Virus record (IMG/VR): IMGVR_UViG_3300044611_002466
Span: 64,001-128,000 of that record
Length of the DNA: 64,000 nucleotides
Source: a virus
Reading direction: 5' to 3' (one strand)
The translations under genes were made by a program, and so were the position numbers. The notes beneath the pieces were generated by a model, which saw only the letters and a program-made list of their open reading frames with translations, did not search any database and was not told the DNA's origin. Below, one piece after another: positions 43,202 to 62,671 of the stretch (the stretch's first letter is position 1; each line of letters opens with the position of its first letter).

Positions 43202-43242
43202 CTTATGACAGCTAAAGTAGCAACGGCCTGTGCCGTTGCTAC
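43202..43242 (-). promoter_or_regulatory. Terminator + TTTAGC + GNCATAAG unit
   Basis: CTTATG 43202, CTAAA 43212, 11-bp stem 43217-43242. Confidence 0.65.
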
Positions 43243-43263
43243 CGTCCGCCGCTGCTCCCCGGA

Positions 43264-43608
43264 CTACGCCTCGCCGGGCTCCGGGGAGTGGAAGCCTCGC
43301 ATTCCGGGAAGAGAGGTGGGGTCGCGGTGGGCCGCCACACCAGACTCATCCTCCCCGGACAGCAATCGCTGCGCGGCCGCGTCCAGCGATTCGAGGCTCG
43401 CGGCCAAGATGATGTGCATCTCGCCGCCTCCGCCACTACACGCATGGAGCTGCACGAAGCTCCCCGTGCGCGGGTTGCGGATCTGGCTCAGCCCGGCCGG
43501 CATGCCGTCCCCCGGCACATGCACGAGCGCAGCCATCCGCTGCTGCCCCAGGAGTGCCTCAACAACGCCCCACCACTTCTGCCTTTTTGCCCATTCAACC
43601 AGCATCAT
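43264..43608 (-). CDS. Hypothetical protein
   Basis: GAGGTGAA RBS. Confidence 0.55.
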   Translation of the reverse strand: MMLVEWAKRQKWWGVVEALLGQQRMAALVHVPGDGMPAGLSQIRNPRTGSFVQLHACSGGGGEMHIILAASLESLDAAAQRLLSGEDESGVAAHRDPTSLPGMRGFHSPEPGEA

Positions 43609-43663
43609 TCACCTCGGTTGCTTCTTGGTTGACCATCACTTCTGCTTGTCCATCTGAGGTCCA

Positions 43664-43864
43664 CTACTTGAAGACGTAGAGGCCGCGAGAGTTGGCGTAG
43701 CGCTCGGCTGCGTCCTTCGAGGCCCCTGGGGGGCAGTTCAGGATCGTGTCGATCGATGCCCAGACCGCACCTTCGGCCCGCAGGTGGTAGGCCCGAGCCC
43801 CGTCCACCGGAGGCCCCATCGCGACGATGGCCGGCGGCGGGACGATTACCACGAGCTTCTTCAT
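43664..43864 (-). CDS. Small hypothetical protein
   Basis: ATGA overlap. Confidence 0.5.
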   Translation of the reverse strand: MKKLVVIVPPPAIVAMGPPVDGARAYHLRAEGAVWASIDTILNCPPGASKDAAERYANSRGLYVFK

Positions 43865-44181
43865 TCCGGCTCCCGCAGCATCATCACCTCGAGAGCGTCA
43901 GCCTCGGAGTCGAAGTGATTGTGCCAGCCGTCGGCCCCAAAGGGCCGCCAGCGCCACCCATCGGACGCGTGGCAGACGATGATGAGGCCGGTCCCAGGTG
44001 ACCACCAGGTGCGCGCGGAGTGGACCCTGTATCGAATCCAGCCACGCTGCCTGGCCTTCCTCCGGAGCCGGACCAGCCGCAGCAGGTCCCTGACGGGCTC
44101 CTTCAGGTAGTCCGCCAGGGTCATGGAGACCCCGCCCAGGAAGAGGCCCAGGAGGACGATGAGCATCGGAGAGTTGGGCAT
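43861..44181 (-). CDS. Hypothetical membrane-anchored protein
   Basis: N-terminal hydrophobic helix. Confidence 0.55.
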   Translation of the reverse strand: MPNSPMLIVLLGLFLGGVSMTLADYLKEPVRDLLRLVRLRRKARQRGWIRYRVHSARTWWSPGTGLIIVCHASDGWRWRPFGADGWHNHFDSEADALEVMMLREPE

Positions 44182-44188
44182 GAACCCC

Positions 44189-45325
44189 TCACTTCTTGAT
44201 GAAGATGGTCTTGGTCTTCGGGGGAGGGAGATCCTCCCCCTGCAGGTAGGGCGCGAGCAGGTGCTCGACCAGGTGGAGCTTACCCCCCTTGCCGTCCTTC
44301 TCGGCGAGCACGCGCTCTCCGCCCGGGGAGCTCACCCAGTACCGATGGAAGTGCCCCGAGATGTACTTCGGGTGCTTGAGCTTGCGCACCGGCTCTTCGG
44401 GCCCGGCGGAGCCCCCCGGGCGGGCACTACGCACCTTCTTGCTGAGGCTGAGGACCCGATAGCTGTTCAAGGTCTTGCCCGCGTCCTGGAGGACCCTGGC
44501 TGCCTTCGTCGGACGACGCTTGGCCTCCTTCGTGTTCATGACCGGCGTGACCATCTCGGACAGCACGCTGGTCGTGTTCTTGAGAGCGTAGAGCAGGTTC
44601 ACGATGACCCGCTCCAGCTCGGGAACACCGCCGAACTCGCTCGGAGCCGCGCCCAGGGGGATCTCGGGGCAGAGATGGAAGACCACCAGCGCGTCGTCCC
44701 GCATCTCACGCATCCGCGCGGGCACGGTGCCCTTAGGACGGCCGACTCCCACGCAGGTGATCCCGCGCACGAAGATGTAGTCGGGCGATCCCGAGCTGAC
44801 GATTCTCTGCCCGTCGGCTTTGTTGACCCGTGCCGCCCCCGCAGCGAACGAGGGCTTGCCGTTCACCGCCGGCACGGCGATGACGTCCCACACCAAGTAG
44901 AAGCCCTCGATGGGGTGCTGCTGCCCGCTGTTCGACAAGCAGAAGAGCGGGGGTAGTACGACGTACATGCCGTTGTCGGGAACCGACTCGACTCCTAAGT
45001 CGAAGGTCTTGACCGGAATCTCGGTGAACGTCAGCGTCCGTGCCAGCTCCTCTTCGAGGAAGTACACCGGCTTCCCGTTGTCCTCCCACGCGAGGATTGC
45101 GTGGGTCAGCGCCCCTTGCGCGGTGTCCAGGGGGTCGATCTCATTACCCGCCGCGCTGTGCAGCGCGTGCAAGAAGTGCTCCAGCTGCCCGCTGCTCTTC
45201 ACCCCATCCGGAAAATACTTCCGAATGGTGTCGTACAGCAGCGGGCCATACTCGCCAGTGGTCATGATTTCGGGGTGCTGCATCTTCCGCGCCCCGATGA
45301 CTGCCTGCTTCTTGGTAGACTGCAT
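44189..45325 (-). CDS. Conserved-type phage hypothetical protein
   Basis: 378 aa; C-terminal GHFHRYW...HL..PYLQG motif. Confidence 0.65.
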   Translation of the reverse strand: MQSTKKQAVIGARKMQHPEIMTTGEYGPLLYDTIRKYFPDGVKSSGQLEHFLHALHSAAGNEIDPLDTAQGALTHAILAWEDNGKPVYFLEEELARTLTFTEIPVKTFDLGVESVPDNGMYVVLPPLFCLSNSGQQHPIEGFYLVWDVIAVPAVNGKPSFAAGAARVNKADGQRIVSSGSPDYIFVRGITCVGVGRPKGTVPARMREMRDDALVVFHLCPEIPLGAAPSEFGGVPELERVIVNLLYALKNTTSVLSEMVTPVMNTKEAKRRPTKAARVLQDAGKTLNSYRVLSLSKKVRSARPGGSAGPEEPVRKLKHPKYISGHFHRYWVSSPGGERVLAEKDGKGGKLHLVEHLLAPYLQGEDLPPPKTKTIFIKK

Positions 45326-45344
45326 GATTCTTCACCTCTATCCC

Positions 45345-45390
45345 CTTATGCCCAAAAGAGGGGCTAAATAGGTCCTCCCCGAGTGGGGAG
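45345..45390 (-). promoter_or_regulatory. Terminator + TTTAGCCC + GNCATAAG unit
   Basis: CTTATG 45345, CTAAA 45364, CTCCCC/GGGGAG hairpin; GAGGTGAA RBS downstream. Confidence 0.65.
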
Positions 45391-45414
45391 GTACCGCGCC
45401 ACGCGTGCGGCGTC

Positions 45415-61153: not shown

Positions 61154-61287
61154 GGCCTTCCCGCGACGTGGTCGGCCTTCCACTGTACGATCAGCTGGTC
61201 CACCTTCACCGAGTCCAACAGGACCCAGAGCGCCAGGAAGGCTCCGATGGCGGCCATGAGAATGAACCCCACAAGCTCGTCTTTCAT
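61150..61287 (-). CDS. Small membrane protein (45 aa, below ORF-track cutoff)
   Basis: MKDELVGFILMAAIGAFLALWVLL...; GGAGG RBS. Confidence 0.55.
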   Translation of the reverse strand: MKDELVGFILMAAIGAFLALWVLLDSVKVDQLIVQWKADHVAGRP

Positions 61288-61306
61288 TGAACACACCTCC
61301 AGTCCT

Positions 61307-61372
61307 CTTATGACGGCGTCCGCCCGGTAGTTTGGGCTAAAAGCCGGGCCCCGAAGGGCAGCCCGACCCGAT
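61307..61372 (-). promoter_or_regulatory. Terminator + TTTTAGCCC + GNCATAAG unit
   Basis: CTTATG 61307, CTAAA 61337. Confidence 0.65.
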
Positions 61373-61381
61373 CCTTCTGGT

Positions 61382-61972
61382 CTACGAACGCGGTGCGTGA
61401 GCCCTCATGGCGCGCTCCATGGCGTCAGATCGACGCACACAGAGAGGAGCCTTCACGACGGCGCTGTAGAGGAGCAGGGCGGTCCGCACGCGGTCCTCCG
61501 CATGCAAGACCCGCTGCAGCTGGGGAGCGTCAACGAGGGCACCGTCGAGGATGTCCCGGAAGGGCTGCGCCTCCGGAAGCGCGAGCAGCGCCTCCAGGGC
61601 CTGGAGCTCCCGGACGCGGTCCGGACTCTCCACATACCACGCGCGAAGGCCCGCCTTTGCCTCTTGGAGCTCCTCGTGGCGTCGGCGGACCAACGCGTGC
61701 GAGTCATCCAGCACCGGCTCGGTCCGAGCGGTCGCCACGAGGAACTGACACGCGCACGGTTCCTTGAGGTAGAGGTCCTTCCACGTGCTGAGGATCTGCT
61801 CGGCCTCGAGCTGCTCGACGTCGAGCAGATCCATGACCTCCTTCTCGGGGGGCCCACTGTCGTCGCTGCTGAGAGTAGCGAACATCACCACCCAGGGCAG
61901 CCGCGGGTGCATCGCGGCGAGGAACTTGAAGCTGTCGGGATGCGTGGTGGTGTCGTCGGCCATTGTCGTCAT
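61382..61972 (-). CDS. Hypothetical protein
   Basis: Single-gene cassette. Confidence 0.6.
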   Translation of the reverse strand: MTTMADDTTTHPDSFKFLAAMHPRLPWVVMFATLSSDDSGPPEKEVMDLLDVEQLEAEQILSTWKDLYLKEPCACQFLVATARTEPVLDDSHALVRRRHEELQEAKAGLRAWYVESPDRVRELQALEALLALPEAQPFRDILDGALVDAPQLQRVLHAEDRVRTALLLYSAVVKAPLCVRRSDAMERAMRAHAPRS

Positions 61973-62015
61973 GGGAGCGCTCCGTGTAGTGTGCGGTGAG
62001 ATGTACGCACACCAA

Positions 62016-62087
62016 CTTATGGCGCATTTACCTCAGTTTTAGAACGGAAACCCCCTAAAGAAAACAGGCCCTGAGGGCGCCTGTCTT
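62016..62087 (-). promoter_or_regulatory. Terminator + TTTAG + GNCATAAG unit
   Basis: CTTATG 62016, CTAAA 62055, ACAGG/CCTGT hairpin. Confidence 0.6.
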
Positions 62088-62106
62088 CCGACCGCACGTG
62101 CTGTGC

Positions 62107-62631
62107 TCACAGCAGCGTGCTACACCCCGCACCGATGGTGCCGGATGCGCCGCGGTTCGCCGCGGTGCGCATCATCTGGGCGCTGGTGGAGAGGCTCTTC
62201 TGCGCGTCCCAGAAGCGCCAGAGCGCCTCCGGGACCACCTGCTCCGCCAGGGCCGCGGGGTTGTGCAGCTTCAGGATCTGCAGCGTGTCCGCGTGGAGGC
62301 GGTCGAGTGCGGTGCCGCCGAGGTACCAGTCCCTGAGCACGACCGCGGCCTCTTCGATGCCCTGGACATGCTTCTGGACGTAGGGGAGGAGGTCGGAGGG
62401 GGTGATCCCGGCCTCCGCCATCAGCGCGCAGTAGCACTGCTCCACGTGGAGCGCATCATAGGCAGCACTCAGCGCGGTCGCCGTGGCGGCTTCGTCGAGG
62501 CCGAGCTCCGGAAACGACACCGGTGTTGCCAGGGGGTCCCGCGCTGCCGCGAGGACGAACTCGCGGGGCAGTGCGGGGTGGATGCCGAAGAGGACCGAGA
62601 ACGTGGCGGAGCGGGAATGGGGCATGTTCAC
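62107..62631 (-). CDS. Hypothetical protein
   Basis: GAGGTGAA RBS; single-gene cassette. Confidence 0.6.
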   Translation of the reverse strand: MNMPHSRSATFSVLFGIHPALPREFVLAAARDPLATPVSFPELGLDEAATATALSAAYDALHVEQCYCALMAEAGITPSDLLPYVQKHVQGIEEAAVVLRDWYLGGTALDRLHADTLQILKLHNPAALAEQVVPEALWRFWDAQKSLSTSAQMMRTAANRGASGTIGAGCSTLL

Positions 62632-62663
62632 CTCGAAGGAAGGGATGGTTCTGCTGACCCTTC

Positions 62664-62671
62664 CTTATGAC
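62664..62671 (-). promoter_or_regulatory. GNCATAAG putative phage promoter
   Basis: CTTATGAC. Confidence 0.6.

Follow-up and report, generated by a model that had tools for sequence, protein, structure and literature searches.

The window, i.e., the whole 64-kb stretch of DNA from an uncultured phage that was analyzed, contains the word CTTATG 19 times on the plus strand and never in the other orientation, so that all 19 copies read CATAAG on the minus strand. A preliminary description had reported at least 19 copies of one orientation at gene boundaries; its 19 positions were exact, but a further such site, TATAAG at 63059-63064, was missed. This site is conserved in G001, the closest relative. 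Shuffled windows contained CTTATG 6.4 times on average and 12 times at most. As described, 18 of the 19 copies extend to GNCATAAG, compared to 2.0 expected from shuffles on both strands; the exception, at 56292, reads GCGCATAAG, with the G one base further upstream. The frequency inside genes and on the opposite strand had been proposed as a genome-wide check. In the whole record of 188,230 bp, 29 copies were found versus 1 on the opposite strand (binomial 6e-8), and 28 of the 29 are intergenic, compared to a non-coding share of 8.8% of the genome, which is what our own ORF caller left uncalled (p about 6e-29).

CATAAG is the top enriched oriented word 5′ of minus-strand genes and stands at the head of nearly every minus-strand transcription unit, including divergent units without upstream RNA. 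Contrary to the earlier supposition, the regulon extends beyond accessory cassettes: polA, the gyrB operon, and every other minus-strand unit belong to it. In the plus-strand half of the genome, the motif does not occur. No published description of a CATAAG promoter class was found in the literature. The candidate promoters of the window are given below as spans from -22 to +12, with the C of CATAAG as position 0.

21393..21427, minus: CATAAG promoter heading a 24-gene unit that ends at 6385; leader hairpin; Shine-Dalgarno at +38; GTG start at 21356
33614..33648, minus: CATAAG promoter inside the gyrB-containing operon, 4 nt past the upstream stop codon; G001 ortholog
35036..35070, minus: CATAAG promoter at the head of a divergent unit; ATG at 35018
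43195..43229, minus: CATAAG promoter; terminator tail ends 3 nt upstream
45338..45372, minus: CATAAG promoter; Shine-Dalgarno at +12; ATG at 45325
48055..48089, minus: CATAAG promoter; Shine-Dalgarno at +12
49997..50031, minus: CATAAG promoter; Shine-Dalgarno at +14; GTG at 49986
52742..52776, minus: CATAAG promoter; Shine-Dalgarno at +12; GTG at 52733
55331..55365, minus: CATAAG promoter driving a sigma-like gene; Shine-Dalgarno at +12; ATG at 55321
55724..55758, minus: CATAAG promoter; Shine-Dalgarno at +12; ATG at 55712; G001 ortholog
56285..56319, minus: CATAAG promoter; no ORF downstream
56948..56982, minus: CATAAG promoter; Shine-Dalgarno at +12; GCAAG at the -35 position
57342..57376, minus: CATAAG promoter; Shine-Dalgarno at +12; motif TAA is the stop codon of the denV-like gene
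57849..57883, minus: CATAAG promoter of the single-gene denV-like unit
59532..59566, minus: CATAAG promoter; motif TAA stops ORF 59540-59980; leader hairpin from +11/+12
60726..60760, minus: CATAAG promoter; leader hairpin from +11
61300..61334, minus: CATAAG promoter; Shine-Dalgarno at +12
62009..62043, minus: CATAAG promoter; leader hairpin
62657..62691, minus: CATAAG promoter; leader hairpin; G001 ortholog
63052..63086, minus: variant TATAAG promoter, the first promoter of the 56-gene minus-strand block; ATG at 63013; conserved in G001

Extended Consensus and Predicted Start Site

An extended consensus was built from 65 sites of this phage (G000) and G001. It has (c)GCAA at -22 to -19 and a spacer of 15 nt in which positions -7 and -6 are A/T, then G at -2 and G/T at -1; CATAAG occupies 0 to +5 and is followed by a purine (+7), T (+11), and G (+12). 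A is found at -19 in 53 of the 65 sites (p about 2e-29), G at -2 in 58, and a purine at +7 in 56, while T at +11 is found in 19 of the 35 sites that lack a ribosome site there (p about 8e-7). In the 14 orthologous site pairs of the two phages, the core is identical in 14/14 and positions -19, -2, and +7 in 10-13/14, compared to 3-5/14 in the flanks. In standard numbering, the -35-like element lies at about -34 to -31, the G falls at -14 as in an extended -10 promoter, and cATAAg spans -12 to -7; the discriminator has its purine at -5, and the start is a pyrimidine-purine step (-1/+1).

Transcription is predicted to start at +12, the position expected from sigma geometry. First, the pyrimidine-purine step at +11/+12 is kept in all lineages, even where no ribosome site lies there. 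Second, the closing stem of a conserved small RNA (listed below) starts at +12 in three lineages. Third, in the unrelated phage G008, ATG is found at +11 to +14 in 10 of 20 sites, a leaderless geometry. No ribosome site starts upstream of +11, chance GAGG/AGGA words at +6 aside. As a counterpoint, about one-third of the long leaders carry a perfect stem starting at +6 to +9 (11 of the 22 perfect-stem long leaders), which a start at +12 would clip; none of these stems overlaps the CATAAG motif. Such stems, together with the purine at +7, would suit a promoter read in the manner of phiKZ/AR9 or T7, in which the word abuts the start and transcription begins at or beside the G of CATAAG (+5 to +7); in the late promoter of phiKZ, T-A-T-G, the G serves as +1 (PMC7598289). 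This reading is nevertheless unlikely, as the phage has a true sigma factor with regions 2-4 and, as in sigma promoters, 15 nt separate the upstream -35-like element from the GG. The three observations above also speak against it, the ATGs of G008 not being at +6, and the outer stem pairs at +6 to +8 are lost in G001 orthologs.

Shine-Dalgarno sequences with start codons that match called gene starts lie downstream of 18 of the 19 window sites, in agreement with the preliminary description, which had noted ribosome sites after most copies. In 8 of the 19 the Shine-Dalgarno sequence starts exactly at +12, and the distance from CATAAG to the start codon ranges from 15 to 50 nt. With a start at +12, about 45% of the mRNAs would have the first G of the ribosome site as their 5′ end and would be almost leaderless; at the remaining sites, the predicted leaders are 20-40 nt long and often hairpin-bearing. 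The TAA of the motif was confirmed to be the stop codon of the upstream ORF at 57349 (ORF 57350-57835) and 59539 (ORF 59540-59980).

Terminator Hairpins and Unit Layout

A terminator hairpin had been described before most sites at 43-63 kb. Such a hairpin (-12 to -28.5 kcal/mol) was found 3-32 nt upstream of 10 of the 16 sites in 43202-62671, with a TT(T)(T)AGC tail in eight cases, TTAAC in one, and TTTAGG in one, compared to only 1 of the 13 sites outside this region.

43211..43243, minus: terminator-like hairpin, TTTAGC tail, -21.3 kcal/mol, z = -4.0
45363..45404, minus: terminator-like hairpin, TTTAGC tail, -21.0 kcal/mol, z = -3.4
48084..48118, minus: terminator-like hairpin, TTTAGC tail, -18.1 kcal/mol, z = -3.0
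50034..50071, minus: terminator-like hairpin, TTAGC tail, -24.2 kcal/mol, z = -6.2
52772..52814, minus: weaker hairpin, TTAAC tail, -12.1 kcal/mol, z = -1.0
55360..55395, minus: terminator-like hairpin, TTAGC tail, -16.8 kcal/mol, z = -3.9
57880..57920, minus: terminator-like hairpin, TTTTAGC tail, -28.5 kcal/mol, z = -5.8
60764..60803, minus: terminator-like hairpin, TTTTAGC tail, -20.7 kcal/mol, z = -4.7
61336..61380, minus: hairpin, TTTTAGC tail, -18.0 kcal/mol, z = -1.0
62054..62089, minus: terminator-like hairpin, TTTAGG tail, -18.7 kcal/mol, z = -2.9

At 43-63 kb, a hairpin with a TT(T)AGC tail would close most units, giving joints of about 100 nt (terminator, promoter, ribosome site) that may insulate short units of 1 to 7 genes. 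That these cassettes are exchangeable, as had been proposed, was not borne out: presence/absence changes relative to the closest relative affected 14 of 33 unit borders and 18 of 42 intra-unit borders (Fisher p = 0.61). Other features of the region are as follows.

54260..55321, minus: second, divergent sigma-like gene, 353 aa, directly downstream of the promoter at 55338
56205..56285, minus: candidate small structured RNA from the promoter at 56292, conserved in G001 and G007
57350..57835, minus: pyrimidine-dimer DNA glycosylase (DenV-like) gene, Pyr_excise, 70.7 bits; one-gene unit
63077..63109, unstranded: inverted repeat GTGAGTACA-N14-TGTACTCAC in a divergent gap, overlapping the -35 region of the TATAAG promoter; conserved in G001

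The candidate RNA has a 7-bp closing stem running from +12 to just before a TTAAC/TTAGC tail, compensatory changes at 8 pairs, and a tRNA T-arm-like hairpin within; ARAGORN and Rfam gave no match. The sigma-like gene aligned with the phage sigma family over 152 columns (hhalign, probability 91%, E 1e-6) and has sigma clusters among its ESM Atlas neighbours; it has no Pfam match and no homolog in G001.

A signal other than a promoter, such as one for mRNA processing, one associated with translation starts, or an asymmetric mycobacteriophage-type "stoperator", could also show one orientation relative to transcription, short intergenic gaps, and an often fixed ribosome-site spacing, and in the accessory region the motif lies between two hairpins, as a processing site might. 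This explanation is extremely unlikely. The motif heads divergent units, where upstream RNA is absent, and has an upstream element at a fixed distance, which a downstream-acting RNA signal would not need. The distance to the start codon varies, and one copy precedes a non-coding RNA. Stoperators, as in phage L5, are known to occur in all units of their phage, unlike the motif, which the plus-strand units lack.

Conservation and the Probable Reading Enzyme

Six related phages, among them the cultured Salmonella phage Arash, have the same promoter layout. In G001, the motif is kept at 14 positionally orthologous sites with diverged flanks. G004 has GG-N-ATAAG-N5-Y-G at 13/13 intergenic sites, and GCAA or a near match precedes almost all of them by 15 nt. 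G005, G006, and G007 share the layout, with Y at +11 and R at +12 in 19/19 sites of G007. The Arash form is tGGTATAAG-N4-GTGTA (GGTATAAG, 30 versus 1). Of the 30 copies, 26 have T at +11 and all 30 have R at +12, a Y-R preference that persists although the ribosome site of Arash is near +21. Placement as the top oriented word and at divergent heads, the 14 orthologous sites, and occurrence in distant relatives bore out the earlier proposal of a phage-specific promoter class.

RNA_pol_Rpb2_6 is found in 7/7 phages with the layout, and a divergent sigma factor in the complete ones. This phage has one polymerase gene only. Neither of the following genes has a CATAAG promoter.

Genome 14161-23067, plus-strand virion block: fused beta-beta′ RNA polymerase gene, single chain
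Genome 152493-153368, plus-strand virion block: divergent sigma factor gene, regions 2, 3, and 4

Across regions 2-4, the profile of the sigma family aligns with SigA, RpoS, and HrdB (E 1.8e-12); it is nearer SigA/RpoS (1.8e-12) than FliA (2.3e-7). The phage sigma alone, which is very divergent, matched Pfam Sigma70_r3 and neither region 2 nor region 4 of Pfam; its top NCBIfam match, FliA_WhiG, is weak (18.7 bits versus a cut-off of 189.6). Mass spectrometry of Arash virions identified beta, beta′, and sigma gp10 (PMC10585845); the Arash sigma is 27% identical, and virion packaging has been shown in Arash only.

From the shared layout, the co-occurrence with polymerase and sigma genes, and the Arash virion proteomics, the sites are read here as phage sigma/polymerase promoters. 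It is fairly likely that CATAAG is the -10 element of a bipartite promoter of the sigma70-family type that is private to this phage lineage. Because the motif is common to distant relatives including Arash, the reader is probably the phage's own sigma factor and RNA polymerase, not those of the host.

The same promoter might instead be used by the phage sigma to redirect host core polymerase, as with SPO1 gp28 and T4 gp55, leaving the phage polymerase for other genes. This is a small though real possibility: the sigma profile resembles cellular SigA/RpoS over regions 2-4, core-binding parts included, and host core enzyme partners most known phage sigma factors (PMC7824862). However, the motif accompanies a phage polymerase gene in every lineage examined, sigma shares the Arash virion with beta and beta′, an arrangement hard to explain for a host-enzyme factor, and no other strong lineage-wide motif was found for the single polymerase of this phage.

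Borrowing of a host promoter class read by a host alternative sigma factor is very unlikely. It could draw on G008, a phage of 100 kb and 70% GC with 20 copies of GCGGCATAAGG (core GGCATAAG before 20 genes) in which no polymerase or sigma gene was detected. This phage also counts against the main reading, in that either a CATAAG -10 element is possible without this sigma or G008 has a reader that escaped recognition; the spacing (A-rich element, N15, 8-mer ending ATAA) also recalls sigma-28 promoters. Against a host sigma, core and flanks are kept over phages of 53% to 67% GC, one of them infecting Salmonella, position -7 is invariably G, although T would suit host sigma70 better, and the plus-strand half of the genome lacks the motif. 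We know of no G-G-T-A-T-A-A-G class in the well-known sigma repertoire of Salmonella.

Comparison with Known Systems and Proposed Mechanism

Extended -10 promoters of sigma70-family holoenzymes read TGnTATAAT, with the start 7 nt past the hexamer. The motif had been placed outside the sigma70 consensus; its architecture (G at -14, ATAA, spaced GCAA, Y-R) nevertheless fits the family. Shared features are G at -14, A-T-A-A at -11 to -8, a purine at -5, Y-R at -1/+1, and a -35-like element 15-17 nt upstream, and Arash reads T-G-G-TATAAG. Compared to TATAAT, CATAAG differs only at -12 (C here, T in Arash, any base in G004) and at -7 (invariably G, not T), and GCAA or an A-rich sequence takes the place of TTGACA at -35. 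A generic sigma70 scan of the region gave matches at chance level only. The sigma-28 (FliA/WhiG/SigD) consensus is TAAA-N15-GCCGATAA; in both cases exactly 15 nt separate the last A of an A-rich -35 element from an 8-mer that ends in ATAA, but the 8-mers share ATAA only and the -35 element here is GCAA.

Phage sigma factors that use host core enzyme include SPO1 gp28, for middle promoters, and T4 gp55, for late promoters (TATAAATA), which are not known to have a -35 element. As in those cases, a private -10 word would set a phage gene class and exclude the host housekeeping sigma; unlike them, the class here comprises the entire non-virion half of the genome, and a polymerase is supplied by the phage itself. 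In jumbo phages that encode an RNAP, an AT-rich motif of about 10 nt is conserved 5′ of early operons, with its centre near -10 (PMC7598289). The promoters described here resemble the early promoters of the phiKZ and AR9 virion polymerases (PMC7598289, PMC5312081) in this AT-rich word of about 10 nt near -10, in having been found bioinformatically before operons that are early or, here, presumably early, and in belonging to a phage with a multisubunit polymerase that is probably packaged (shown for Arash, PMC10585845). Those polymerases have several split subunits and no sigma (PMC7824862), whereas here one fused beta-beta′ chain, a true sigma with regions 2-4, and a bipartite promoter are found.

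Phage N4 injects a virion polymerase for its early genes, and the gene of this polymerase is itself in the late class (PMC4496689), a scheme like that proposed here. The N4 enzyme is single-subunit and reads DNA hairpin promoters, while here a bacterial-type enzyme is encoded, and hairpins are found in terminators or downstream of the core. Some plus-strand unit heads may carry host-like TAnnnT hexamers; compare the N4 late genes, which depend on host polymerase.

In the proposed mechanism, the phage sigma (152493-153368) would bind the fused beta-beta′ polymerase and read the CATAAG promoters. From the position of both genes in virion blocks without CATAAG and from their Arash virion counterparts, we infer that this enzyme is probably made late, packaged, and injected. 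The injected enzyme would then transcribe all minus-strand units in the next infection. The promoter class would serve all minus-strand (non-virion) units of the phage, well beyond the accessory region.

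CATAAG at the heads of minus-strand transcription units

The complete genome of the source phage (CheckV; IMGVR_UViG_3300044611_002466, G000) is 188,230 bp long with 65% GC, the window covering its bases 64001-128000, and a self-trained ORF caller placed 226 genes on it in alternating strand blocks, with 91% of the sequence coding. The plus-strand blocks carry large virion-type genes, which include a 2968-aa ORF that combines the beta and beta' domains of RNA polymerase with a LAGLIDADG insert (the only polymerase gene in the genome) and a 291-aa protein with a Pfam Sigma70_r3 match of 28.7 bits; the Sigma70_r2 profile searched alone gave no match. 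The T7-type polymerase profile PF00940 gave no match, but it also missed the control genomes, which makes the result uninformative. On the minus-strand blocks lie polA, an operon with gyrB and numerous small ORFans. In the accessory region (43202-62671), nearly all cassette proteins are ORFans by Pfam and PHROGs, and megablast of the region against cultured phages returned no match.

CTTATG, which reads CATAAG on the minus strand, is present at all 19 positions listed in the preliminary description, with every copy on the plus strand (shuffled sequences had 6.4 copies on average and 12 at most), and 18 of the 19 extend to GNCATAAG against 2.0 expected. The motif is not equally frequent inside genes or on the opposite strand: genome-wide, 29 copies in one orientation stand against 1 in the other, and 28 of the 29 are intergenic. 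The two sites at which the TAA of the motif was said to serve also as the upstream stop codon were both read correctly. Among oriented words in front of minus-strand genes, CATAAG is enriched far more than any other, while the upstream regions of plus-strand genes and units yielded neither an equivalent word nor a strong shared motif.

A copy heads almost every minus-strand unit, including the divergent ones, where no upstream transcript is possible. At the head of the 56-gene minus-strand block stands a TATAAG variant (63059) that the preliminary description did not list. One-mismatch variants as a class are neither enriched nor oriented, and only this TATAAG and a GATAAG at genome position 136309 look real. 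The small minus-strand block at genome 43345-45044 has a first gene without CATAAG (genome 44385-45190, minus strand, outside the window); its product gives a weak Sigma70_r4_2-like helix-turn-helix match (20.3 bits, below the cut-off), and it may be a regulator whose expression is driven differently.

A search of IMG/VR for exact matches to the core plus ribosome site gave 93 stretches, almost all of which contained one match each. This is about the chance level for 15-16 specified bases in that amount of DNA, and the search was useful solely for surfacing two distant relatives (G006 and G007) and an unrelated phage (G008). A full-text literature search for the motif words gave no relevant match.

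A second conserved intergenic word, (T)GTGAGTACA, lies upstream of genes on both strands and is common to G000 and its closest relative, G001. Its sites are as follows:
window 63077-63109, (T)GTGAGTACA
genome 82243, (T)GTGAGTACA
genome 128744, (T)GTGAGTACA
genome 136146, (T)GTGAGTACA
genome 136179, (T)GTGAGTACA
genome 142548, (T)GTGAGTACA
genome 183557, (T)GTGAGTACA
In the divergent gap at 63013-63426, the word forms the inverted repeat GTGAGTACA-N14-TGTACTCAC, which the TATAAG promoter overlaps with its -35 region. The word may be either an operator or a second promoter class.

Extended consensus and its conservation

The extended consensus was derived from 65 aligned sites of G000 and G001, the latter a genome of 182.8 kb with 84% identical polA and 37 motif copies in one orientation versus 0 in the other. 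Counting the C of CATAAG as 0, ATAA is invariant in all 65 sites and also in Salmonella phage Arash and the more distant relatives G004, G006 and G007. Upstream, A occurs at -19 in 53 of 65 sites and at -20 in 36 of 65, both within a (c)GCAA element, followed by A/T at -7 and -6, G at -2 (58/65) and T/G at -1. Downstream, a purine occupies +7 in 56 of 65 sites, and T at +11 and G at +12 are conserved even in the subset of 35 sites lacking a ribosome site at that position. In 14 positionally orthologous pairs, the core is kept in 14 of 14 and the flanking consensus positions in 10-13 of 14, against 3-5 of 14 for the surrounding sequence.

In standard promoter numbering, these elements become a -35-like element, G at -14, cATAAg at -12 to -7, a discriminator purine at -5 and Y-R at -1/+1. 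The invariant A at -11 in an AT-rich hexamer and the -35 element at a fixed upstream spacing both agree with the sigma70 family. The earlier view that the motif does not match the sigma70 consensus must thus be revised, as the architecture is of the sigma70 family and the hexamer differs from TATAAT at -12 and -7 only. A generic promoter scan found sigma70 matches at chance level.

Sigma-28 (FliA) promoters have a -10 8-mer GCCGATAA, a -35 TAAA and a 15-nt spacer. The spacing of 15 nt agrees with that of the phage sites, but the 8-mer here, S-G-K-C-A-T-A-A, matches at 4 of 8 positions and the -35 element is GCAA, so that the phage promoters are not of the sigma-28 class. A FliA/WhiG ortholog as the reader was likewise rejected (TIGR02479, 18.7 bits against a cut-off of 189.6).

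The layout extends to the distant relatives. All 13 intergenic sites of G004, whose sigma is 26% identical, follow the pattern GG-N-ATAAG-N5-Y-G, and in almost every one GCAA or a near variant stands 15 nt ahead of the GG. The layout is also present in G005 and in G006 (sigma 43% identical), and in G007 all 19 sites have Y at +11 and R at +12, with A at -19 in 15 of 19. Among cultured phages, Arash alone has this sigma (27% identity). A de novo search of its genome for enriched words gave GGTATAAG, with 30 copies on the strand of the non-structural genes versus 1; T is found at +11 in 26 of 30 and R at +12 in 30 of 30, and the ribosome site lies about 10 nt further downstream. Arash (OQ632216.1) also has five near-identical dispersed repeats of at least 90 nt (…AAACGTTGTAACCTTTGTAACCCCACCTCAAGACCCTTATATAAGATTAGGTACCC…), which are unrelated to the GGTATAAG promoters yet contain TATAAG:
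26740, OQ632216.1, repeat copy
66487, OQ632216.1, repeat copy
100243, OQ632216.1, repeat copy
138590, OQ632216.1, repeat copy
173364, OQ632216.1, repeat copy

Predicted start site, leaders and terminator-like hairpins

Transcription is predicted to start at +12, 7 nt past the hexamer, and five indirect lines point to this position. First, sigma geometry predicts it, with sigma70-family starts lying 6-9 nt past the hexamer. Second, the Y-R at +11/+12 is conserved across lineages. Third, the ribosome site never begins before +11, apart from chance GAGG/AGGA words at +6, and for 8 of the 19 sites in the window, as for about 45% of all 65, its first base is exactly +12. Fourth, the closing stem of a small structured RNA begins at +12 in three lineages. 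Fifth, in G008 the ATG of the downstream gene falls at +11 to +14 in 10 of 20 sites, a leaderless geometry. Long leaders count against the prediction. Hairpins are enriched in them just past the motif (z < -2 in 11 of 35, compared to 2 of 60 random windows), and in 11 of 22 the perfect stem opens between +6 and +9, so that a +12 start would clip it. In the G001 orthologs, the outermost pairs of these stems are lost, which does not remove the conflict with a +12 start.

The small RNA and its surroundings comprise the following features:
56205-56297, minus strand, candidate structured RNA of about 80 nt downstream of the CATAAG site at 56292
55722-56691, 955-nt non-coding gap of low GC enclosing the small RNA
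The RNA is conserved in G001 and G007. Its 7-bp closing stem shows compensatory changes and ends immediately ahead of a terminator tail; it also has a hairpin resembling a tRNA T-arm (GGGTTCGAnTCCC in relatives) and another long hairpin. It is not a canonical tRNA (ARAGORN and Rfam found no match in the window or the region). The gap also contains 3-4 repeats of about 85 nt (TTTTAAGAACGACCAAAATG...GGATACCTSTG) and CAAGAAGTGCYAYATACATGC repeats, and could be an origin or a regulatory hub.

The hairpins described upstream of the promoters in the accessory region are present at 10 of 16 sites there (-12 to -28.5 kcal/mol, with a TT(T)AGC-type tail), compared to 1 of 13 sites elsewhere, and 8 of the 10 are strong (z -2.9 to -6.2). 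The distance from hairpin to CATAAG varies from 3 to 32 nt, which rules out a fixed spacing and indicates that putative terminator and promoter are separate elements. An intrinsic terminator would have a GC-rich hairpin with a U-tract directly behind it; here the tail has a run of just 2-4 T before a conserved AGC, and a generic terminator scan requiring 5 T in 8 bases, too strict for such tails, finds 1 of the 10. The same tail type is found at the ends of plus-strand operons, for example behind the gene at genome 53101-54267, as well as in G001, G004 (TTCTAGC) and Arash (TTTTAG). It may serve as a terminator matched to the phage enzyme.

One unit consists of a single gene with its own promoter and putative terminator:
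57350-57835, minus strand, pyrimidine-dimer DNA glycosylase resembling T4 DenV (Pyr_excise, 70.7 bits), left out of the self-trained gene set

The accessory region is hypervariable, with a homolog in G001 for only 15 of its 43 genes. The suggestion that the units are exchangeable cassettes was not borne out in a gene-level comparison of this one genome pair, in which gene presence or absence changed at 14 of 33 unit borders and at 18 of 42 internal ones (p = 0.61).

The probable reader of the promoters

The polymerase is present in G000, G001, G004-G007 and Arash, and the sigma accompanies it in the complete genomes. A profile of six members of the phage sigma family matched the solved SigA, RpoS and HrdB over regions 2-4 (E 1.8e-12), covering SigA residues 165-356 and hence both regions 2 and 4 expected of a cognate sigma. 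Its match to FliA was weaker (2.3e-7), and the likeness of the promoters to those of sigma-28 is therefore one of spacing only. We consider it likely that the promoters are read by a phage holoenzyme made of its own sigma and polymerase. What holds our confidence at this level is mainly G008 (IMGVR_UViG_3300050821_016057), an unrelated phage of 99,861 bp and 70% GC with a family B DNA polymerase, which has the core without a detected RNA polymerase or sigma. Its 20 copies of GCGGCATAAGG often follow the palindrome CCCAAACCCGGGTTTGGG, and many lie 6-9 nt before an ATG; megablast against cultured phages gave no match. Either G008 has a reader that was not recognized, or something other than this holoenzyme is able to read a CATAAG -10 element.

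The polymerase and sigma genes lie in virion operons without a CATAAG promoter. From this placement we infer that the polymerase is probably packaged in the G000 virion; an enzyme of this kind would transcribe early genes independently of new protein synthesis and of host polymerase. In Arash virions, beta, beta' and the sigma gp10 are among the most abundant proteins by mass spectrometry (PMC10585845), evidence of a kind that exists for Arash only. The Arash paper does not mention promoters (PMC10585845). There are hints that the virion genes, polymerase and sigma included, would be read by the host enzyme, as some plus-strand virion units are headed by host-like TAnnnT hexamers (TATAGT, TACAAT) or, in G001, by TTGACC-N-TACAGT. 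Examples are:
genome 27947, plus strand, unit head with host-like hexamer
genome 54393, plus strand, unit head with host-like hexamer
genome 45304, plus strand, unit head with host-like hexamer
G001 146387, plus strand, unit head with host-like hexamer

A further sigma-like gene lies directly under the promoter at 55338:
54260-55321, minus strand, 353-aa ORFan
It aligns with the phage sigma family over regions 2-3 (hhalign 91%, E 1e-6), has sigma and ECF clusters among its ESM Atlas neighbours and has no homolog in G001. It looks like a second, divergent sigma factor and is a candidate switch factor.

A fuller scheme is offered tentatively, and we lean slightly against its holding in every part. 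The tailed-phage lineage of the lake-water phage and Arash would inject a full bacterial-type holoenzyme (fused beta-beta' and a true sigma), which alone would read about 30 private ATAAG promoters and so run the entire non-virion programme without the host polymerase. Many mRNAs would begin at the first G of the ribosome site, and the second sigma-like gene, under one such promoter, would retarget the enzyme to another promoter class.

Large phages have been described in reviews as having either their own multisubunit polymerase without a sigma or a sigma without a polymerase (PMC7824862, PMC7598289); in the comparative review, this division holds for the RNAP-encoding and the sigma-encoding jumbo phages (PMC7824862). 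For the RNAP-encoding ones, an AT-rich motif has been noted as conserved around -10 in early operons (PMC7598289). Compared to both groups, the present lineage has polymerase and sigma together, and CATAAG/TATAAG provides a concrete DNA target that makes this pairing testable. Its consensus is precise, a start site can be predicted from it and each genome has about 30 copies; the signal is also present in the cultured Arash, whose virions already contain the enzyme. Signal and sigma form a candidate orthogonal promoter-sigma pair. The units are built very economically: putative terminator, promoter and ribosome site together take up about 100 nt, and mRNAs are predicted to be nearly leaderless. 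In hundreds of uncultured genomes, the signal provides a rule by which to annotate transcription units, non-virion genes as a class, small RNAs and correct start codons.
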